Assembly (NCBI GenBank): GCA_903922605.1
Contig: CAIXUG010000072.1
Span: 73,432-137,431, forward strand
Direction: 5' to 3'
DNA length: 64,000 nucleotides
From: an uncultured Verrucomicrobiota bacterium
Lineage (GTDB): Bacteria > Verrucomicrobiota > Verrucomicrobiia > Limisphaerales > UBA9464
Part shown: positions 22,408-60,338 of the stretch, in pieces
Numbering within the stretch: position 1 is the stretch's first letter
Layout: each line of letters begins with the position of its first letter
Translations under genes and position numbers: made by a program
Notes under the pieces: model-generated
The model's input: only the letters and a program-made list of their open reading frames with translations
The model's database searches: none
What the model was told of the DNA's origin: nothing

Positions 22408-22860
22408 TCAATTCAATTCAAGTGCCGGAAGCCGATCAGATACGTCATAAAGGCGCGCAAAATTGACTCTGCTGATGTAATGGAAACTTTGTGGAGGCCG
22501 GAATCCTCCGCGTCGCTTACGAAGTGCAGGCAGCGGGATAGGTATGGGTAGTCTCCAAGCGCGTCTTATCACAATCGCATGGGCCATCATTTTGCCCGAA
22601 AAATACTGCCTGAACTCTGCGTAGGAAATTCCGGTTTTCTCTCCTAGTGCTCTCCACAACATCTGGGGTGCAGCGGAAATCACCTCTTCGACTTCAAACG
22701 CTCCTTGAAGCTCTTTGGTGGGCGAGGAAACATAAACAAATGCCAAATCCCCTGAAGTCACTCGCGGCTTTACCCGGCGAAGCTCAACGGTTTTTTTTCC
22801 CGCGAAAATCTTCGCCGCAAACTGTGGGCGAATCGAAATCAAGAGCGCGTGCTGACTCAT
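22408..22860 (-). CDS. Stand-alone ASCH-domain (PUA-like fold) protein
   Basis: 150 aa. MSQHALLISIRPQFAAKIFAGKKTVELRRV...AFVYVSSPTKELQGAFEV is typical ASCH. The ATG at 22860 overlaps the upstream stop (ATGA). Confidence 0.8.
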   Translation of the reverse strand: MSQHALLISIRPQFAAKIFAGKKTVELRRVKPRVTSGDLAFVYVSSPTKELQGAFEVEEVISAAPQMLWRALGEKTGISYAEFRQYFSGKMMAHAIVIRRAWRLPIPIPLPALRKRRGGFRPPQSFHYISRVNFARLYDVSDRLPALELN

Positions 22861-24968
22861 TGACGAGAATGGTTCATTCCAAGTTGGTAGATGGCAACGA
22901 ATTGGTCGTTCGTGATTCTTCGTGGATTGACGGGCTGTGGCACAGCCAACTCTTTTATCTCGGCAAGCGAGACGGGTCGAGCAAATCGCTCGGTTCTGGA
23001 AAAACGGAATGCCAGGAGAGTTGCATCCAAATCGTTTTTGGCCCGCGCAAAGACATCCTTCCATTCGAAAACCCCAAGATGGCGGAACTTCCGATACAGT
23101 TCCTTGGGTTTCCCCACGACGATCTCCGCGAGATGCGAACACGCCTTGACTTCCATGGCCCCTCTGCCGGACGGGCCTTGACTTACATACCAGAGAATTC
23201 TGGCCGGTGCACGGAGGTGCCTATTCTTCCCAGAACAGTAATAGGCACCTTCGATACCTAGATGGAGTCTTTCCTTCAAATCCATCCATAATTGGCCACC
23301 TGTCGGAGCGTCAAAAAAATGTTCCGCCCAATCGGGGAAGATGGGCACAACGAAACTAGGCAAGTTGATGTCGACAATCTTCACCGGCGCGAGAGATTGC
23401 TCGCAACGTATTGCCAAATCCGGGTGCGAAGTCGCAGCCAAAACGCAAGACGCTAATTGTCCTTTGAGAGAAGGCGGAAGTCCGGACGAGCATACTGCAT
23501 CCGTTGCTTCTTTTATGTTCACCACCCCGGCCAAACTGAGTTTCCACCAAGCTTCCCCATCAGTAAGAAAACCTAGTTCCTGCATCGCGGAGGTCGCCAC
23601 TTCGGAAACACCTTTGTCAGAAACAGAGAGCAAGTTGCTTGTTCCTTGGGCCGTATCCAGCACAGCCGCATGAAGCATGTGCCGGATCAAAGTACCGGCG
23701 AGGGGATGGTTGGAATGACGCAAAAATGCGATTTCAAGGGCTGCATCACCGGTTCTTGTTTGAACAAGCAAAACGGCCAGGGCATATGTGTCGTCAACAG
23801 CCAAGCGACATGCCGACGTGTCGGGGTGAGCAAGGTGGTGCCGGAGCCTAGATTCAAATTCGTGCAACCGCTCCGAACGTGTCTGGTGAAACACTTCGCA
23901 CAAATGCGGAATGTCTGCCTCGGTAACTAGCCTTTCTCGCCAACGTGAACCTTCCAATCGGACGGGCCGGTATTCGGCCTCCCGACGTAGATTGTCGAAA
24001 CGAACAATCAAGTCGGTCGGATGAAGAATGCGCAGGCCGTATCGTTCGAAGATGCGATCAGCGTGGCTTAGCATTCCGGCGTCCCGGGTTACAAGAAAAG
24101 CGACTTCGGCGGCTATGGCGTGGGCAACCTGCCGCATGTCGGACCTATCGCGGTCGCAGATCGCGTTATTGAACAGAGGCTTTAACTCAGCTTCTATCAG
24201 CTTGGTCCTGCTCTCATCAGTCTTGAGTTCTCGGAATCCTTGGGCAGCGCCTCGAGAACGCTGTTGATCGGATGCCGAATCGGCCCGATGAATCTCATTG
24301 AACAGCTCTGGCGTGATGCATAGTTCAAGGCAGCCATCGAGCCAGTCCGCTTCCAACATTCGCGTATCCTCTCCGTGTGGGCGGCCATCGACCGTCAGAT
24401 CGTAGAAAACATTGGCATCAATGGCGACAGTGACCCGTTGACTGGCTTCTTCGCGAGTGGCAGCAATCGAAAAGAGGTCTTCATGGTTATGGCCGAACCA
24501 CCACAAATCAAGAAGCGCTCCATCTGCACCACGACCAGTTTTCGTATTTCTAACCGTAAACCCAAACTTCGACCACATACCTTCCAGCCGGTAGTCACGA
24601 CGACAATTCAGACTGATTCCCAAAAGATGCGAAGTATCGCCTTTCAAGCGATCAATCAGTAACTGTGCAACGCCAGTGCCTCGGAACTGTTCCGCGCTGG
24701 TAAGGTGTGTAATGGCCGCCCGGCGCTTCGCGACTCGGTAAAGTAGATATCCAGCCAGAGAGCCGTCTGGCGCTAAAGCGACAAGAATATGATTGAGCTT
24801 AGCGCGCTCCTCAAAAGCTCCGGTAGGTAACGGCCCTAGACGGGCTTTTGAAACTGCGTGAAGCGCCAATACTCCTTTCAGCAACGGAGAGTCGGCTCCA
24901 ATACACTCCACCTTGAAAGGAATTGGAATTTCCTGAGCTATCGGCTGGGCGGGATTGACTTTACTCAC
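22857..24968 (-). CDS. Multidomain GNAT acetyltransferase - PIN nuclease - GNAT-like - ASCH-like protein
   Basis: 703 aa. GNAT motif A is R96-G-T-G-V-A101. PIN acidic residues are D184 (VAIDANVF), E215/E221, D277 and D296 (LVTRDAG). The C-terminal 160 aa resemble the downstream ASCH protein. Confidence 0.8.
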   Translation of the reverse strand: MSKVNPAQPIAQEIPIPFKVECIGADSPLLKGVLALHAVSKARLGPLPTGAFEERAKLNHILVALAPDGSLAGYLLYRVAKRRAAITHLTSAEQFRGTGVAQLLIDRLKGDTSHLLGISLNCRRDYRLEGMWSKFGFTVRNTKTGRGADGALLDLWWFGHNHEDLFSIAATREEASQRVTVAIDANVFYDLTVDGRPHGEDTRMLEADWLDGCLELCITPELFNEIHRADSASDQQRSRGAAQGFRELKTDESRTKLIEAELKPLFNNAICDRDRSDMRQVAHAIAAEVAFLVTRDAGMLSHADRIFERYGLRILHPTDLIVRFDNLRREAEYRPVRLEGSRWRERLVTEADIPHLCEVFHQTRSERLHEFESRLRHHLAHPDTSACRLAVDDTYALAVLLVQTRTGDAALEIAFLRHSNHPLAGTLIRHMLHAAVLDTAQGTSNLLSVSDKGVSEVATSAMQELGFLTDGEAWWKLSLAGVVNIKEATDAVCSSGLPPSLKGQLASCVLAATSHPDLAIRCEQSLAPVKIVDINLPSFVVPIFPDWAEHFFDAPTGGQLWMDLKERLHLGIEGAYYCSGKNRHLRAPARILWYVSQGPSGRGAMEVKACSHLAEIVVGKPKELYRKFRHLGVFEWKDVFARAKNDLDATLLAFRFSRTERFARPVSLAEIKELAVPQPVNPRRITNDQFVAIYQLGMNHSRQ

Positions 24969-53426: not shown

Positions 53427-54848
53427 CTACTTCGCATCGATTCGCAGCACCCAATCCGCTTCCTGCCGGCTGTTCGGCCCCGGAGGTGTGAATTCGTGAA
53501 CGCCCGCGCCCTTCAGCGAACCGCTGATGGTACGGTATTGGCCGCTGGTAGGATCAAACCAGCGGGCGGTGCGCCGGGGCTTCAGCCCGGAGAGATCCAC
53601 CGCGATGGGGCCGACATGGGCGGGCGGAACGTAGGCGATCAGCAGCGAGCCATCCTTGCTGGCGGAGGCGGCCACGAAGCCGGGCGCGGTGTCCTTGTTT
53701 TCCGAATCCACGATGAGCGCCTTCATCCCATTCAGGCCTGAGGGCACCAGCGTCCACCAGGGGATCGATTTGATGAACGTGTTCAGCCACGCCATGTCGA
53801 GGGCGGTCTGGGTATTGAGGTGCTGCTGCCAGAGGGGATCGATGAAGGGCCAGATGTAGCCATTGCCAGAGACATAGCCGCCCACGGTGCCGAGCCAGCC
53901 CCACCATTGGAAACGCCGCACCGGCTGGGTCGCGTTGCGGTTGTAGTTGTTCCCGTCGGGACCCTCCTCGTCGTACGGCTCCTCCAGGAGAAACGCTGGC
54001 ATCACCGGCTGATGCGCGTAGCCGCGCCGGGTGACCATGGCCACCGGCCGGTTCGTATCCCACGTGTAGCAGCCGTTGATCGTCATTTCGTGACCAAAGT
54101 CCGCATTCTCATTGGCGTTCTCTCCGCTGAAGGATTCGGCCGTGTAGAGGATGGATTGTTGGCCTGGGACGCTCTTCAGGCCCCGGATCAGGGCCGCCTC
54201 GGCGGTGCGCTGGGTGGCGTTGAATTTCCCGAAATCGCCCAGCAGCATCCAGATGAGGTTCTTGCGCTGCCGGTAGCGGGTGGCGAACCACGCCCCATAG
54301 GCCTCGGTCTTTTCCGGCCCGTTGGCGATCAGCTCCTGTCCCCAGCCCTGTTCCTTGAAATCGTAGCCGAGGTAGGCCGGGAAGAGAAACACCACGACGC
54401 CCTCACGCTCGCAACGGGCCAGAAACGTATCGAGGTAACGCCAATAGTTCTCGTTCGGAGTCAGCAGGTCCGGCCCCTCCGTCCGGATGTCCCGGAACTC
54501 CAGTTTCCCGTCCCATGCCTCGCCATTGAGCCGCCGCAGAAACGGCTGTTCTCGTTCCCCATTGAAGGGCGGGTGATTGCCCATGGGCCAGTGGCAGAGC
54601 GCGCTGACCTCAATCGCGTTGTGCCCGTGCGCGAGCGTGTTTTCCAAGAACTTGCCGTACCCGCTCTCCGGCTGGGAAATCACGCACCACGCGGTACGCC
54701 CGAGAATCGGGAAGGGGGTGTTGCGCTGGTCCACCAGATAGCGGCTGTCTTCGCTGAGCTTCAGCGGCAGAACCCATGCGCCGTGGCTCCGCGGCATCAT
54801 TACGAACGCAAGCAGGACCGCAAAAGCGAAGCGCCGAAGGGATTTCAT
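53427..54848 (-). CDS. Secreted glycoside-hydrolase-like protein (DUF4038 / GH140-like, from memory)
   Basis: Signal MKSLRRFAFAVLLAFVMMPRSHGA. TIM-barrel-like region plus C-terminal WFDPTSGQY motif. The family assignment is tentative. Confidence 0.6.
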   Translation of the reverse strand: MKSLRRFAFAVLLAFVMMPRSHGAWVLPLKLSEDSRYLVDQRNTPFPILGRTAWCVISQPESGYGKFLENTLAHGHNAIEVSALCHWPMGNHPPFNGEREQPFLRRLNGEAWDGKLEFRDIRTEGPDLLTPNENYWRYLDTFLARCEREGVVVFLFPAYLGYDFKEQGWGQELIANGPEKTEAYGAWFATRYRQRKNLIWMLLGDFGKFNATQRTAEAALIRGLKSVPGQQSILYTAESFSGENANENADFGHEMTINGCYTWDTNRPVAMVTRRGYAHQPVMPAFLLEEPYDEEGPDGNNYNRNATQPVRRFQWWGWLGTVGGYVSGNGYIWPFIDPLWQQHLNTQTALDMAWLNTFIKSIPWWTLVPSGLNGMKALIVDSENKDTAPGFVAASASKDGSLLIAYVPPAHVGPIAVDLSGLKPRRTARWFDPTSGQYRTISGSLKGAGVHEFTPPGPNSRQEADWVLRIDAK

Positions 54849-55336
54849 AATGTGGAGGGTCGCGAAAGCGATACCCGCTGCCAGCGGAAAGCGCTGACCC
54901 GTCGCTGCTGGGCGAAGCTTGTTCTACAAAAGCAGGATGGTTTCTCCTCGACCACCATCCATTTATCGAGCTGCAGGATGAACTTGGTGACGGGATGGTC
55001 GTGGCTGAGCTCGCGCTCATCCACGAGCATCATGATGGAGGCCACAGCGAACATCTTGGTCATCGAGGCGATCCAAAAAACATTGTGCTCGCGCATTGGT
55101 TGCTTCGCCTCGACGTCGGCAAAGCCCAGGAGATTTTGGTAATGCACCTTGTCCGTCTTGTCCGCGATGAAGCCGAGGACGTGGGCTAGTTTGTAGCTGT
55201 TCGGGTAGGGTGGCATGGCCGCCGTCACTTCGGAGCTTGCGGAAGGCGTGTATTCGTCTGCTTCGCCGTGGATGGTGGGGAGTGCAGCTGCCAGAGGAGC
55301 AGGAACTGCCCGCACAAGGAGCGTAGTTTCATGCAC
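54845..55336 (-). CDS. Serine hydrolase (beta-lactamase family), N-terminal fragment only; possible pseudogene
   Basis: SxxK motif in FWIASMTKMFAVASIMMLVDE...HPVTKFI. Similarity ends after about 120 aa. The ORF is 163 aa, whereas full-length members are usually over 350 aa. Confidence 0.5.
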   Translation of the reverse strand: MHETTLLVRAVPAPLAAALPTIHGEADEYTPSASSEVTAAMPPYPNSYKLAHVLGFIADKTDKVHYQNLLGFADVEAKQPMREHNVFWIASMTKMFAVASIMMLVDERELSHDHPVTKFILQLDKWMVVEEKPSCFCRTSFAQQRRVSAFRWQRVSLSRPSTL

Positions 55337-55422
55337 TTGAATTGCGGCAAACTGCAGTCGGGTGGAAGCTCAAAAGGGCTTTGCTGTTTTGATGCAGCGG
55401 AGGGGCCTGATTTGTATCCTAC

Positions 55423-57543
55423 TTAGCCTTTCGCGAAAATTGGCGCGATTATTTCAAGATCAGCATGGAAGAATTCAGCAAACGATGACTTAAATTCTTT
55501 GGCGGAGATTGGTGGCAAGAGTGACCTGCCTAATGCGATAAAAAGTTCGCCAGCGATTATTTTTTGGTTCGCCACCAACAGTTGTTCAGCCAAAAAAGAA
55601 CGAGTCTGCATGCTTGCCAATTGTCCCCATTCGGCTCGATGCACAAGTCGCAAAAGCGCTGCTCGGATTAATCCTTCGGTATACCGATCTTTAACATTTT
55701 CAGGGCTCATCACATTGCTGACTGGAAAACGAGGATGGAGTTGCTTTTTAAGGTATTTATCATTTCGCTGAGCTTGCAGAGCACTAGCTAATGCAAACAT
55801 CACAACCATCGAAGACGATTCGCCTGAGCAAATCGGAGATTGGTCACCCAACACAACAGATGACACACCTGGCAGCAAGAGAATAGGTTCATCACTAATG
55901 CCCTCAGTGCGGTTACGCAACTTCGCTAGTCGCGCGGTGAGCCATCTAGGGGGGCGCGCAAATCGTCTAGCGATACCAGAAATAAAGTCAAACTCGCGGC
56001 ACCACGGACACAACTCTTCGTTCCAATTAGGAAGGATAATCTCTTCGACAGCGTGGAAATGCCCTTTCCAATTATGGCCATCTGTTAGTGTTTTTGATAA
56101 CTCGGTAAGATGTTGAGGTGTGGACGGGCGGGCAAGTGCCACCAAGTAGCTGAGCATCTGGCATGACAGATAATGCCCCTCCCGCACAGATTGAATGTAC
56201 TGCCTGAGTCGGGAGCCTGAGTTTACAACATCATCGACGATTAGAATCTTTCTTGCATTTAGAACAATGCCAAGATCATTTACGGAAAGCGCATTCCTAT
56301 CCAATGTGTCGTGAATTATAACAGGGCAACCGAACACGGCTTTTGCTCTGTCCGCCATGTATTTTCCGGCCTCATGGTCCGGGGAAACTATAAGATCAAC
56401 ATTTCCTAGTAATGAAACTAGTTTCTCGTCGAAACGCTTGGCAAACTCTGGATGTGAAAATAGCGTAAACATATTGAGATCGAATGCATGATGGCGGCCA
56501 TCATTTCGATCGTCATGATGGACGATAAAAAGGTTTTTAGTGTCTCGATAGCGCTCAATAAATGGTTTTGCAGCTGCGAGATGTGATTTTGATAATAGCA
56601 CTTCCGGCTCGCTCAATGATTTCAAATGATAAGCTGCCGGGTCAATGTGAATAGGGATGCTTCCAGATGCGCATAGTTCGCAAGGATCTTGAAAGAATGT
56701 TTCGTGTGTGGGAATCCGGGCGAAGCAATTCAGCTGATTGGGAGTGCTCGCAAATCCATAAATGCTTAAACATTCAATGGTAAACCGGCCCGCTGCTCGT
56801 TCGTTGAACATTGTTTGGATATGCTCCACCAATCTGCCGCTGCCACTTATGCTTACGAAAGCCACAAGTCTTCCTCCGAGTGGCAATCGGGCAAGTAGGC
56901 CTTCTACAACTCTTTGGCATGCAATGCTATTATGTGCCGGGTGTTCGGGGAAGCAGTCAAATGGAATCTGAAGTCGGTTGATCTGAAGTGTTCGCAGTAT
57001 TGCAGAAGCGATGCTCCAACTGTCCACAAGGATTGCATCTGCTGTTCCGATATACGGTCGGAGCCAGAAGGCCATTTGATCCAAAGTGTGAAGATTATGA
57101 AGCAAATCGCCTATACGCATGAACCGCGAGGTATGAGTCAAGGAAGGGGTGACGAAATGGTAATTTGCGTGTGCTTCAAAGGCGCACGCTCCACCGTCCT
57201 CTTCTAGTAGTTGTAACAAGTCCGCCTTCCGCACCTTTGAAACGACCGGTTCGACTTCCAATTGTGAAAAACCTGCCGGGGCAATAAGATCAGCCTTAAT
57301 AGAAAATGAAGGGCCAGGTGTCAGGACAACAGTCGGCTTTTCGGCCGCATACTGAAGTAGAGGTTTTGCTGCAATAGCATCGAAGGCAATTGGTGTATTG
57401 CTAAGAAACGCAAGCGACGATGCTGCGCGAAACGTATCTGCGTTGAGTCGGCTGATTTTCTCTGCGACATCAGCAAGTGTGCTCTCCTCCCGCAGATAAA
57501 AGACTCGAGGCGAATCGAGTGAGTTGGTGTTCCATTGAGGCAT
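55423..57543 (-). CDS. Tandem phosphoribosyltransferase (PRTase)-like protein with C-terminal helical domain
   Basis: 706 aa. Canonical PRPP loop KILIVDDVVNSGSRL (aa 432-446, nt 56206-56250). Degenerate N-terminal copy RLVAFVSISGSGRLV (aa 225-239). CxxC after each module (C288/C291 and C512/C515). Confidence 0.8.
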   Translation of the reverse strand: MPQWNTNSLDSPRVFYLREESTLADVAEKISRLNADTFRAASSLAFLSNTPIAFDAIAAKPLLQYAAEKPTVVLTPGPSFSIKADLIAPAGFSQLEVEPVVSKVRKADLLQLLEEDGGACAFEAHANYHFVTPSLTHTSRFMRIGDLLHNLHTLDQMAFWLRPYIGTADAILVDSWSIASAILRTLQINRLQIPFDCFPEHPAHNSIACQRVVEGLLARLPLGGRLVAFVSISGSGRLVEHIQTMFNERAAGRFTIECLSIYGFASTPNQLNCFARIPTHETFFQDPCELCASGSIPIHIDPAAYHLKSLSEPEVLLSKSHLAAAKPFIERYRDTKNLFIVHHDDRNDGRHHAFDLNMFTLFSHPEFAKRFDEKLVSLLGNVDLIVSPDHEAGKYMADRAKAVFGCPVIIHDTLDRNALSVNDLGIVLNARKILIVDDVVNSGSRLRQYIQSVREGHYLSCQMLSYLVALARPSTPQHLTELSKTLTDGHNWKGHFHAVEEIILPNWNEELCPWCREFDFISGIARRFARPPRWLTARLAKLRNRTEGISDEPILLLPGVSSVVLGDQSPICSGESSSMVVMFALASALQAQRNDKYLKKQLHPRFPVSNVMSPENVKDRYTEGLIRAALLRLVHRAEWGQLASMQTRSFLAEQLLVANQKIIAGELFIALGRSLLPPISAKEFKSSFAEFFHADLEIIAPIFAKG

Positions 57544-58661
57544 TACAATCCCAGGTTCAGCACCTCTTGATCAGGATTCTCATTGGAAACGGGCCAAAAA
57601 ACTGAAATCGCAGTTCCTTGAAGGCCCGTCGGAATCTCAATCCTTGACCAAACTGATTGGCCTTCCTTTGTCTCATTAAACGCAGCCTGACCGGCGGAGT
57701 TTACAAAGATGCAGGCCTGTAAACGAGCGGCAGCGTCCAGTATATTTGCCAACCCTTGCCCTCGATTTGGGCTACCACTTCGTGGCTTGCGACTCGTGCC
57801 CCGTTCGAATGCCCTCATGAGTCGAGACCATTCCGACTCATCGCCCGACGGCAGGAGTGTATTTTGAATGCCCTGGCCATAATCAGCTACAGTGGCACAG
57901 AGCCAGAGCGAATTGCGTCGTTGAAATCGTGGTTCAATAAAGCTTCTTAGAAACGCCGGTATCTGGTTTCGTTGCGATAAGTTATCGAACGATTGAAGCA
58001 CGAGTTTTTCGACCGACACACCCCAAATTCCTTGATATTCAGGAATTGCGTGTTCAATCGAATTTCGAAAAGCCTCGAATAGAAATCCAGAGATCGCTGC
58101 TTCGGTCAGTGAGCCAAAAAACCTTTTCCCAGCACCAAGACCTTCACCAATATTGCCAAGTGCCGATTCAAATTCTCTGCGGCTAGGAAGTTTATTTGTT
58201 TCCGAAGAACGAACCAGTTCAGGAATAGGTGAATCAAATTCGCGAGAGATTAGATTCTGACTTTTCCCATCACCGACGATGCCTCCTGTCTTTAATAAAA
58301 TCTGTCGCCACATGCAATCAAAGGCATTGGCGGATAAATCTCTGCTATTCGCATCAACTACCGTATCTGCTGCCTCAAGAAGAGCTACTCCAATTAGAGT
58401 CAAGAAAAAATCAGGCCATTCTTTCATTGACATGGTGTGAATCTCCCCACGCGGAAAGGGAAATTCGCAACGAATGATTACGGCTGATGCTTTGGAACGA
58501 ACTCGACGCACAGCAGAAATTGCAATGCCTGTTGTGAGCAGTCTGAAACCTGACTCACGCGTTATTTGGAATTCAACTTCGTCACCGGGCTGGCAATCCC
58601 ATCTAGCGACATCTTCAATGGACGCCCACTCTTGTATCCGAAATTGTAATGTCTTAGCCAT
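57543..58661 (-). CDS. GHKL / histidine-kinase-like ATPase-fold protein with unassigned N-terminal domain
   Basis: From ATG 58661 (372 aa): N-box EAFRNSIEHA (196-205), G1 DYGQGI (260-265), G2 GQGLANI (301-307), and GTAISVFWP. The stop overlaps the downstream start (TAATG). The ORF track extends to 58844. Confidence 0.75.
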   Translation of the reverse strand: MAKTLQFRIQEWASIEDVARWDCQPGDEVEFQITRESGFRLLTTGIAISAVRRVRSKASAVIIRCEFPFPRGEIHTMSMKEWPDFFLTLIGVALLEAADTVVDANSRDLSANAFDCMWRQILLKTGGIVGDGKSQNLISREFDSPIPELVRSSETNKLPSRREFESALGNIGEGLGAGKRFFGSLTEAAISGFLFEAFRNSIEHAIPEYQGIWGVSVEKLVLQSFDNLSQRNQIPAFLRSFIEPRFQRRNSLWLCATVADYGQGIQNTLLPSGDESEWSRLMRAFERGTSRKPRSGSPNRGQGLANILDAAARLQACIFVNSAGQAAFNETKEGQSVWSRIEIPTGLQGTAISVFWPVSNENPDQEVLNLGL

Positions 58662-59075
58662 CTGCTTCTCGGGGGAGGGAATTACATCGTTTCGTGTTTG
58701 CGCGCAAGGTATTGGGTGTTTGTCTGTGCTTTTCGGGGAAATCTTTCGATTCTTGCTGTAATTCTTCGATACCGCTATCTTGGAATTGACGTCGGCGCCA
58801 GCTTTCCTACCGGGTAGACCGGCTCTGTACTGCAGCGCCGGCATTGCGCGACAACATTTCTTTGAGCGTACTGCCGGATCTTCTTCCTTTGTTCCTTAGT
58901 CGTTTTATCCGCGGCTTGCGTTTTCTCTCGCCTTGAGCCAAGCTAATGTTTGCTTGCCGGGAGCATCCTGTCCGCGGAAATGGGCCCAGCCCACCGGTCT
59001 GTTACGAAACATCAGAAACCTGACTTTCTGGCCCAGAGTTGGCGGACACACGGGCGCAATTAAGAAAGTAAGGTT

Positions 59076-60338
59076 ATGGCGACTGTATCCCGGGACCTGC
59101 CTGCCAGGCCCCATATCGATGTTCCGAAACGGGAGGCCCGCGCATTGCTGAAGGCGTGGCGGGACAAATCCTCCGAAGCGCTGGAGCGGATTCGCCGGCG
59201 GCATCCCCGATTCCACGACGCGGATGAGACGGCGATTTCGTCCGCAAAGTTCCTCCTGAATGACGCCCAGCTGGTCCTCGCGCGGGAGTACGGATTTTCC
59301 AACTGGGCGCAACTGAAGGAGCGGATCGACGCGAACACCGTGACGGGCCTGCTGCTGACGGCCATTCGGGACGACGATCGGGAGACGACGGTGAGACTGC
59401 TCCGGGCGCATCCGGAGCTGTTGCACGTCCCACTCTGGAGTGGGAACTGGGGGCCGCCCATGAGCCACGCGGCGAATCTCGGGAGGCTGGAAATTATTCA
59501 GGCGGTGGCCGCCCTTGGGGCGCGGGACTATCAGCACGCCTTTGGTCGGGCGCTCTTGCAGGGCAAACTGGAAACCGCCCGCTGGCTGCACGGGCACGGT
59601 GCGAAATTGGAACCCGGAATCGTGATGGGCGCCTGCGAGTGCCTGAATCCGGCCGGGCTCGGCTTCCTGGCCGATCTGGGCGCGCCCTTCACGGATGACC
59701 AGGGGGACCGGCTGGCACCGCTGGGGTTGGTGCTGGAAACGTACGGACGAAATCCGGTGGGAAAACATGCCGTGCTGAAGCTCTTTGCAGGGCAGGGGTA
59801 CACGTTTCCGGATACGCCGATGATGGCGTTCCATCGCGGCGATCAGGAGCGGCTCAAGGACTTTTTGCGGCGCGACCCCGGCCTGTTGGAACGACGCTTC
59901 AGTCTCCTCGAAATTTATCCGCCCGAGCTCGGTTGCGCGAAGGATGGCCGGTCTGGGATGCACTGGACCCCGATCGGTTGCACGACGCTGCTGCACCTGG
60001 CAATCGACTTCGATGACGCGGAAGTTTTCGACCTGCTGCTGGCTCACGGAGCCGATGTGAATGCGCGGGCGCTCGTGGATGCGGACGGTTTTGGCGGTCA
60101 CACGCCCCTCTTCAACGCCGTCGTGAGTCACGGGGCGCACCAGGGGGCGATGGCCCGCAGGCTGGTGGCGCACGGAGCCTCGGCGACGGTGCGCGCGTCC
60201 CTGCGCAAGTTCCTGGACTGGTGTGAGACGCCGCGCTGGCACGAGGCCCGGGAAGTGACGCCGGCGGAGTGGGGGCGGAGCTTTCCGGATCAGGGCTGGG
60301 TGAATGCGGAAGCGTTGCAAGCAGCCGGGAGCCCATAA
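59076..60338 (+). CDS. Ankyrin-repeat protein
   Basis: TLLHLAIDFDDAEVFDLLLAHGADVNARA...GHTPLFNAV and further ANK-like units. 420 aa. Confidence 0.8.
   Translation: MATVSRDLPARPHIDVPKREARALLKAWRDKSSEALERIRRRHPRFHDADETAISSAKFLLNDAQLVLAREYGFSNWAQLKERIDANTVTGLLLTAIRDDDRETTVRLLRAHPELLHVPLWSGNWGPPMSHAANLGRLEIIQAVAALGARDYQHAFGRALLQGKLETARWLHGHGAKLEPGIVMGACECLNPAGLGFLADLGAPFTDDQGDRLAPLGLVLETYGRNPVGKHAVLKLFAGQGYTFPDTPMMAFHRGDQERLKDFLRRDPGLLERRFSLLEIYPPELGCAKDGRSGMHWTPIGCTTLLHLAIDFDDAEVFDLLLAHGADVNARALVDADGFGGHTPLFNAVVSHGAHQGAMARRLVAHGASATVRASLRKFLDWCETPRWHEAREVTPAEWGRSFPDQGWVNAEALQAAGSP

Follow-up and report, generated by a model that had tools for sequence, protein, structure and literature searches.

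The window analysed here is a stretch of 64,000 nucleotides of contig CAIXUG010000072.1 from an uncultured bacterium of the Verrucomicrobiota, and our subject is a cassette of two minus-strand genes within it. Gene 1 (57543-58661) encodes a predicted ATP-binding protein of 372 amino acids (aa), and gene 2 (55423-57543) a putative tandem phosphoribosyltransferase (PRTase) protein of 706 aa. The junction between them reads TTGTAATGCCT, a TAATG stop/start overlap (57541-57545, minus strand, read directly from the sequence) in which one base is common to the stop codon of gene 1 and the start codon of gene 2, so that both the genes and their coupling agree with the original prediction made for this DNA. 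Gene 1 was called from its open reading frame (ORF), the lengths of its homologues, an AlphaFold2 model and homology to the PDC-M65A family discussed below, and gene 2 from its ORF, a match to PDC-M65B, an AlphaFold2 model and structural matches found with Foldseek to orotate and adenine phosphoribosyltransferase (OPRT and APRT). Taken at its longest, the ORF of gene 1 would begin at 58844 and encode 433 aa; since its close homologues measure 368-373 aa, we place the start at 58661. Full-length homologues of both proteins reach down to about 25% identity, and together with the confident AlphaFold models this indicates that we are dealing with real genes rather than chance ORFs.

The two genes are the only content of an islet of low guanine-plus-cytosine (GC) content at about 55,300-58,900 (unstranded), where GC drops to 0.40-0.52, from about 0.65 in the remainder of the window. 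The islet is the window minimum, as expected from the earlier claim that the cassette is the sole cargo of the most foreign segment, and there is a single other low-GC patch, at 22-25 kb with a GC of 0.53. No further ORFs were found in the islet and the cassette has no Rfam match, its leader being without structure (z = +0.69); a DprA protein, a reverse transcriptase and an msr/msd-like RNA are thus absent from it, as had been stated. Furthermore, the islet contains no integrase and is not flanked by any convincing direct repeats, promoter and terminator sites around it are not enriched over shuffled sequences, and no tRNA gene was found in the window.

The C-terminal half of gene 1 carries the complete motif set of a Bergerat fold, at the residue numbers originally given. 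In order, these are an N box with E196 and N200 (EAFRNSIEHA, 58047-58076), a G1 box with D260, G262 and G264 in a D-x-G-x-G arrangement, and a G2 box with G301 and G303 (G301-Q-G-L), the stretch from G1 to G2 (DYGQGI to GQGLANI) being located at 57741-57884. These are accompanied by an F-box-like RAFERGxSRKP lid and a conserved C-terminal P-D-Q. Throughout the gene 1 superfamily, as sampled by 119 representatives of clusters at 50% identity, N200, D260, G262, G301 and G303 are invariant. The AlphaFold2 model is a confident single body (predicted local distance difference test, pLDDT, 83.8; predicted template modelling score, pTM, 0.87) that is disordered only at the ATP-lid residues 289-303 and the C-terminal tail. 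It divides into an N-terminal domain (aa 1-178; 58128-58661, minus strand), delimited by secondary structure and a pLDDT of about 90-96, and an ATP-binding domain (aa 179-372; 57546-58127, minus strand), delimited by the invariant columns, Foldseek and the family profile.

In structure, the ATP-binding domain resembles the ATPase domains of GyrB and ParE (Foldseek probability 0.9-0.98, E about 2e-3). The profile built from the 119 representatives finds its best alignment with the P4 kinase domain of CheA (3.9e-6), spanning the F-box-like 'AFxxGxSxK' segment as well as G2. HATPase_c_2, an RsbW-type model, is matched by 5 of the 119 members, next to a weak match to the RsbW-like domain of Rv1364c, and Pfam HATPase_c gives the window's gene 1 on its own 15.8 bits against a cut-off of 26.4. 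From these sequence comparisons, the C-terminal half can be assigned as a predicted Bergerat ATP-binding domain of the histidine-kinase/CheA/RsbW (anti-sigma-kinase) type. A HisKA/DHp or receiver domain was matched in neither gene 1, gene 2 nor any of the 119 gene 1 relatives, in line with the absence noted before, and no conserved receiver neighbour occurs among the annotated loci. Gene 1 stops at residue 372, with only a short disordered tail beyond E350-358, the strand that closes the ATP-binding domain. The proposed analogy to MORC-like proteins was therefore abandoned: no S5-fold transducer domain follows the GHKL domain, and the sequence affinity of the profile is to CheA and the histidine kinases.

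The N-terminal domain of gene 1 is a compact α/β body with conserved W21, G127, G132 and P147. Searched alone, its profile has no match in PDB or Pfam, and Foldseek of gene 1 against PDB and viral structures returned GHKL-domain matches only among the top 50 per library. The element order of the model (β-α-β-α-β-α) hinted at a STAS-like domain, a lead that gained no support: STAS_2 is matched weakly by 2 of the 119 members (E = 0.035), and the hhalign comparison with SpoIIAA, made on a PDB-validated sequence, was not significant (probability 0.5%). In one distant clade the partner protein measures 207 aa and consists of the ATP-binding domain alone, so that the N-terminal domain is an accessory. 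At the locus of this type that we label L007, the stand-alone domain (252-875) is paired with a PRTase protein of 733 aa and matches PDC-M65A at 2.4e-11, a better match than for most full-length relatives. No homology was detected among the accessory domains of gene 1 and gene 2.

Gene 2 is composed of a small N-terminal α/β domain of 117 residues, a degenerate PRTase-like module 1 (aa 118-300; 56644-57192, minus strand; delimited by hhalign to module 2 and conservation), a canonical type-I PRTase module 2 (aa 335-520; 55984-56541, minus strand; delimited by Pribosyltran and invariant residues) and a C-terminal domain (aa 521-706; 55426-55983, minus strand) that, as foreseen, is mostly helical in the AlphaFold2 model, where it was drawn from secondary structure at lower model confidence. 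Neither this domain nor the N-terminal one could be placed in a family. Foldseek matches the protein to OPRT and APRT with a probability of 1.00 and a target-normalised TM-score of 0.5-0.6. The model as a whole has a pLDDT of 81.7 and a pTM of 0.55, and how the two modules are oriented to one another is not modelled with confidence. Module 2 holds the loop that binds phosphoribosyl pyrophosphate (PRPP), KILIVDDVVNSGSRL at 56206-56250, with the expected layout of a hydrophobic strand, an acidic pair and a phosphate loop of small residues. The acidic pair, D437 and D438, is where it had been placed, and both residues are invariant in 27 gene 2 homologues down to 23% identity, as are R445, H342, H351, P388, H390, C512 and C515. 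The last six of these belong to further motifs of module 2, namely the H342...R350-H-H-x-F-D355 cluster, S-P388-D-H390 and C512-P-W-C515; in the C-terminal domain, R538, L542, G548 and R593 are likewise invariant. Pfam Pribosyltran is matched by 25 of the 27 family members (best 1.8e-6), and gene 2 of the window by itself reaches 14.6 bits where the cut-off is 26.3. The best NCBIfam match is ribP_PPkin (TIGR01251; 1e-4, 21.3 bits against a cut-off of 113, aa 350-448), and the best PDB sequence match is the C-domain of Thermoplasma PRPP synthetase (0.004, aa 381-461, including the 'VSPD' segment).

So what exactly is module 1? In place of the acidic PRPP loop it reads 'VSISGSGRL'; D174 and G236 are invariant, and the module ends in C288-x-x-C291, of which both cysteines are nearly invariant among the 27 homologues. 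With hhalign it aligns to module 2 at P = 9e-4, where control pairs of unrelated domains give P = 0.16-0.5, and the alignment is in register, setting 'VSISGSGRL' against 'VDDVVNSGSRL' and CELC against CPWC. A tandem PRTase reading of gene 2, with the second degenerate module that the original prediction had suspected, is thus reasonable, and module 1 may reasonably be regarded, on this alignment, as a PRTase copy that has lost its acidic pair. Each module terminates in a CxxC, and the two knuckles probably form one predicted four-cysteine metal site that would join the two halves.

Gene 1 and gene 2 behave as a unit. In every locus recovered, about 25 distinct ones, a gene 1 homologue lies directly upstream of a gene 2 homologue on the same strand, so that the neighbourhood of the pair proved conserved wherever it was looked at: in 16 of the 16 loci of a first set, in six more loci as well as in Cupriavidus necator and Ralstonia solanacearum, and in 12 of 12 metagenome loci, some of which duplicate earlier ones. 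Measured in 17 further loci, the intergenic gap ranges from -4 to +19 nt, and the distance matrices of the two genes are correlated with a Mantel r of 0.956, a value reached by 0 of 5000 permutations. A few copies have probably decayed through frameshifts or as pseudogenes: at L022 (2071-5228) the 373 aa partner gene is followed by an ORF of 109 aa and a truncated PRTase gene of 528 aa, and the PRTase gene is split into 125 aa + 602 aa at L029 and into 125 aa + 349 aa at L035, where the end of the contig cuts the second part.

The cassette had been put forward as a candidate previously undescribed system, and this claim goes too far. PADLOC-DB v2 contains PDC-M65, a two-gene 'phage defence candidate' derived through guilt-by-embedding in BREX, DISARM and type I restriction-modification (RM) loci, which the table lists as cassette CAS_00195, counted 40 times (Payne et al. 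2024, bioRxiv 10.1101/2024.01.29.577857). Gene 2 of the window matches PDC-M65B with E = 2.9e-19 and 66.8 bits (aa 102-638 against positions 116-682 of 763), and PDC-M65A is matched by 60 of the 119 gene 1 superfamily representatives, the best at 2.2e-23, as well as by the partners at L016, L007, L008 and L011. The PADLOC models classify gene 2 and leave the window's gene 1 aside, and the homology of the latter to the PDC-M65A family, as judged from sequence, is transitive only. The two systems are alike in their two-gene make-up, in the adjacent, same-strand order of A then B, and in being embedded in or adjoining RM systems. Furthermore, PDC-M65A, with about 398 positions, has a histidine-kinase-like ATP-binding C-terminal half and PDC-M65B, with about 763 positions, has PRTase modules, as in our cassette; the difference is that gene 1 of the window clade escapes the PDC-M65A profile. 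As such, the cassette is best described, from profile comparison, as a divergent clade of the PDC-M65 superfamily, of a kind that is already catalogued as a candidate.

The window clade, which occurs mainly in Verrucomicrobiota-type metagenome-assembled genomes (MAGs) and metagenomes, is thus beyond the reach of the PADLOC models: its gene 1 goes undetected, and of the RefSeq pairs, from C. necator and R. solanacearum, too, only half is detected. PADLOC would probably miss the window copy for the same reason, assuming that it requires both profiles. In the literature on PDC-M65 we found no domain annotation, function or phenotype, and no papers on PRTase-CE by name. Neither did we find a paper that tests or describes a system of a histidine-kinase-type ATPase with a tandem PRTase, in a search that did not extend to Nicastro et al. 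2023. The PRTase system of DefensePredictor, considered as a match for the pair, is a different one, a PRTase+NADAR pair, and so are Ophion and Ambrosia (10.1101/2025.09.30.679545).

The pair is rare and sporadically spread. Among 5.8 billion proteins there are 20 clusters at 90% identity for gene 2 and 27 for gene 1, and a repeated search with the gene 2 alignment returned the same 20 proteins and nothing new; the gene 1 superfamily as a whole comprises 257 clusters at 50% identity. A set of 185,579 species-representative genomes yielded only 7 loci, all in MAGs and divided over four phyla, Verrucomicrobiota, Acidobacteriota, Bacteroidota and Binatia. In each of these seven, the GC of the pair is 5-13 points under that of its flanks. 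Distant copies are found on megaplasmids of R. solanacearum, that of strain Po82 carrying the pair at about 65.9-69.3 kb, and on pHG1 of C. necator H16, and no copy was found in phage records and viral contigs.

The surroundings of the pair differ at each locus, with no conserved metabolic neighbour seen, and the association with defence islands is strong. The pair is embedded in a type I RM operon with the order HsdM-Fic-HsdS-pair (L017), adjoins an ABC-ATPase/DUF4276 pair (L018), is flanked by SIR2-HerA and Mrr (L019) or by type II RM and Lamassu-like genes (L006), adjoins a methylase/HNH RM system (L008) or a type IIG enzyme (L016), lies within an islet of RM and ParE genes among argG fragments (L001) and, on pHG1 of C. 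necator, adjoins Avs1b/c of AVAST. In addition, the 56 neighbouring ORFs of the MAG loci include matches to NERD+UvrD, PDC-S13, a type I S subunit and TIR. The pair is thus often found within or next to loci of RM, Lamassu, SIR2-HerA, AVAST and toxin-antitoxin systems, in line with the link to known defence systems that the original prediction proposed to look for.

Two of these loci deserve a closer description. At L001 (8886-19000), three separate fragments matching the argininosuccinate synthase C-terminal domain are interspersed with the cassette and two methylase genes of RM type, just downstream of an intact argG, and the intergenic spaces flanking the cassette are only 24-27 nt; this arrangement suggests that the 3' end of argG is an integration hotspot with repeated insertions. 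On C. necator H16 pHG1 (L023, record positions 162815-166232), the pair, H16_RS32265 and H16_RS35355, encodes WP_041688671.1 and WP_136227934.1, both annotated as no more than 'hypothetical protein'; an annotated type 1 AVAST system lies about 2.5 kb away, and IS66 elements are near.

How, then, should the cassette be understood? We consider it probable, with moderate confidence, that the two genes form a conflict or defence module acquired by horizontal transfer, belonging to a divergent clade of the PDC-M65 superfamily; its horizontal acquisition, to which the sporadic spread and foreign composition point, is probable to the same extent as a part of this explanation. By analogy with better-known systems, it would most likely be an ATP-gated defence or abortive-infection module that acts on PRPP or nucleotides. 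Gene 2 would be the effector, a fused pseudo-dimer of two type-I PRTase modules that is probably held together by the four-cysteine metal site and in which only module 2 retains the acidic loop for PRPP or ribose-5-phosphate. By analogy with ShosT and other defence PRTases, it would consume PRPP or alter purine or pyrimidine nucleotide pools, and thereby arrest the infected cell or the replication of the phage. Gene 1, in which a family-specific N-terminal domain precedes an ATP-binding domain of the histidine-kinase/RsbW type, would be the regulator or sensor; it would bind ATP and, through binding or phosphorylation, either hold the effector off or switch it on.

Several observations weigh against this reading. 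PDC-M65 itself has candidate status only, as one of 145 such PADLOC candidates (10.1101/2024.01.29.577857), and gene 1 of the window has no match to PDC-M65A at E <= 10, in either its 372 aa or its 433 aa form. In the window no defence gene lies within 5 kb of the cassette, and the locus family of L020 and L021 is without any defence neighbour. The co-divergence of the two genes is what shared ancestry alone would be expected to give for neighbours. Moreover, the Pfam scores of both window proteins lie under the gathering thresholds: the searches with HATPase_c and Pribosyltran that had been recommended uphold the domain calls when family profiles and Foldseek are added, and fall short for the window proteins alone. 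Lastly, the best sequence matches of module 2 are to PRPP synthetase and not to a nucleobase PRTase.

Comparison with known PRTase defence systems helps to place the pair. ShosTA is a type IV toxin-antitoxin defence system in which the PRTase toxin ShosT is paired with the DprA-like ShosA; ShosT requires PRPP binding and disrupts purine metabolism (PMC11961720, PMC12961424). Like ShosTA, our cassette is a two-gene module with a non-canonical type-I PRTase in which the PRPP loop is conserved. Unlike the DprA-like, DNA-binding antitoxin of that system, however, its partner is predicted to be an ATP-binding, kinase-like protein, and the putative effector, a tandem PRTase of 706 aa, has a predicted four-cysteine site and extra domains. 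The ShosT hidden Markov model does not match gene 2 of the window, and among the relatives it reaches only the distant P0020, at 0.009 and over the PRPP loop alone. PRTase-like effectors in anti-phage defence are further known from type III-A retrons (e.g. Retron-Eco11), PsyrT and OpnC of Ophion (PMC12746101; 10.1101/2025.09.30.679545). With the first of these, gene 2 shares a weak match to the PADLOC model PRTase_III-A (0.0064, on the PRPP loop). It differs from all three in the tandem-module architecture, and the cassette is without a reverse transcriptase, non-coding RNA, RecQ-like helicase, radical-SAM or PHP partner.

We also considered membership of gene 2 in the Pfam family PRTase-CE (PF24390) and rejected it: gene 2 of the window scores 15.4 bits (E = 0.017) where the cut-off is 27, and 14 of the 27 relatives match, the best at 0.0015. 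Nicastro, Burroughs, Iyer and Aravind reportedly described, in 2023, predicted immune systems with PRTase-CE effectors and with HSP90-like (GHKL) modules. The concept shared with our pair is that of a PRTase-type effector aimed at nucleotides and coupled, in a conflict system, to a regulatory module of NTPase or GHKL type. The pair differs from such systems in that the ATP-binding domain of gene 1 appears to be of the histidine-kinase type and is not demonstrably HSP90-like.

A variant of the defence reading gives gene 1 a more specific role, as a protein kinase like RsbW or SpoIIAB that sequesters or phosphorylates the PRTase effector, or takes its own N-terminal domain as a pseudo-substrate, until a phage cue or a fall in ATP frees the effector. 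We regard this as a tentative possibility, somewhat unlikely but the best placed of the alternatives. The alignment of the gene 1 profile with the CheA kinase domain and the N, G1, F and G2 boxes are consistent with it, as are the HATPase_c_2 matches, the weak Rv1364c match, the lack of a transducer domain after the ATP-binding domain, and the name 'anti-sigma regulatory factor (Ser/Thr protein kinase)' that one source gives to one homologue. Furthermore, both proteins have several invariant His and Ser residues, and the pTM of 0.87 implies that the N-terminal domain packs on the kinase-like domain. Against it, Foldseek puts the GyrB/ParE ATPase domains first, no phospho-acceptor site was identified, and the STAS_2, profile and SpoIIAA comparisons failed to show that the N-terminal domain is STAS-like. 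The resemblance to RsbW/SpoIIAB and to the catalytic, ATP-binding domain of CheA thus concerns the stand-alone Bergerat domain, which has the N, G1, F-like and G2 boxes and lacks a transducer domain; the differences are that gene 1 has no DHp/HisKA, receiver, sigma factor or demonstrable STAS partner, that it carries a family-specific N-terminal domain of 178 aa, and that it is always coupled to a PRTase protein.

An extension of this idea, which we think doubtful, would make the pair an ATP-gated switch in which gene 1, possibly with its N-terminal domain as a pseudo-substrate, reads the ATP state or a phage cue and controls a Zn-stapled enzyme resembling both PRTases and PRPP synthetase, by partner-switching or phosphorylation. 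The chemistry of that enzyme would be unlike that of ShosT, for example pyrophosphoryl transfer or the synthesis of an aberrant nucleotide instead of simple PRPP consumption.

Slightly less probable again is a related view of gene 2 as a pyrophosphokinase like PRPP synthetase, in which the two halves form one active site that transfers pyrophosphate from ATP to a ribose-phosphate or nucleotide, draining ATP or yielding an aberrant or signalling nucleotide. In PRPP synthetase, the classical example of two PRTase-like domains in tandem, the acidic ribose-5-phosphate loop is retained by the C-terminal domain only, and gene 2 is likewise tandem, with that loop in the second module only. The ribP_PPkin and Thermoplasma matches point in the same direction, as does the invariant His/Asp cluster H342, H351 and D355 ahead of module 2. 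However, gene 2 scores far under the family cut-off (21 against 113 bits) and is matched over the C-domain only, the Foldseek ranking is led by OPRT and APRT with PRPP synthetase absent from the top 50 matches, and neither the flexible-loop nor the ATP-binding motif typical of that enzyme was identified in gene 2, whose module orientation is in any case not confidently modelled (pTM 0.55). Gene 2 also differs in its extra N-terminal domain, two CxxC knuckles and 185 aa helical tail, and in a sporadic and foreign distribution where that of PRPP synthetase is universal.

About equally improbable, in our estimate, is a plain toxin-antitoxin or addiction module, with gene 2 as a metabolic toxin and gene 1 as its antidote, that stabilises islands and megaplasmids and has no specific anti-phage role. 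The compact, overlapping two-gene operon, the carriage on megaplasmids and the ParE, PIN and RelE modules that are repeatedly adjacent to the pair would fit, and the best-studied PRTase system, ShosTA, is itself a type IV toxin-antitoxin (PMC11961720, PMC12961424). The placement in a type I RM operon, between SIR2-HerA and Mrr, and beside AVAST is nevertheless typical of defence, and an ATP-binding protein of 372 aa with conserved catalytic motifs would be an unusually elaborate antitoxin. Moreover, toxin-antitoxin and abortive-infection roles can coexist. Finally, an ordinary metabolic or regulatory pair, that is a nucleotide-salvage enzyme with a dedicated kinase-like regulator and no conflict role, would agree with the PRTase fold, the salvage-type PRPP loop and the housekeeping neighbours that ORF translations give in the window, but is made very improbable by the extreme sparsity (7 loci across 185,579 species genomes and, at 90% identity, 20-27 clusters in 5.8 billion proteins), the foreign composition in every host, and neighbourhoods that vary by locus, repeatedly place the pair in defence loci and include no conserved metabolic neighbour.

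The surroundings of the cassette in the window add some observations of their own. As read from ORF translations, the islet is flanked by genes for a LysR regulator, a glycoside hydrolase, an ankyrin protein and a phosphoglucomutase. Abutting the 3' end of the cassette is a minus-strand ORF of 163 aa (54845-55336), of intermediate GC (0.55-0.60), that resembles the N-terminal part of a serine beta-lactamase-family protein, with its S-M-T-K motif, in shortened form; it may be a gene remnant from the insertion of the cassette. On the other side, the ankyrin-repeat protein (59076-60338, plus strand) has a weak match to PADLOC PDC-M72A (1.7e-5, aa 303-374), which is probably due to the repeats and not meaningful. 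The second low-GC islet of the window (22408-24968, minus strand, GC about 0.53) contains ORFs that match another PADLOC candidate system, PDC-M11: the protein of 703 aa at 22857-24968 matches PDC-M11A at 9.6e-15 with its C-terminal part only, and that of 244 aa at 22408-23142 matches PDC-M11B at 3.8e-30.

For PDC-M65, these results provide an anatomy, namely a predicted kinase-type ATP-binding protein coupled to a tandem PRTase with a probable four-cysteine metal site, and show the family, with its roughly 257 clusters at 50% identity, to be several times wider than PADLOC detection suggests, half of these clusters being detected. The invariant residues in both proteins are targets for mutation, and C. 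necator H16 with pHG1 and R. solanacearum with its megaplasmids are cultured, genetically tractable carriers. If the defence reading is true, the cassette would become one of the few defence systems directed at the supply of PRPP or nucleotides. Histidine-kinase-type ATP-binding modules are used in immunity by Detocs-type systems, and the present family would then be a second example, here without a phosphorelay partner.

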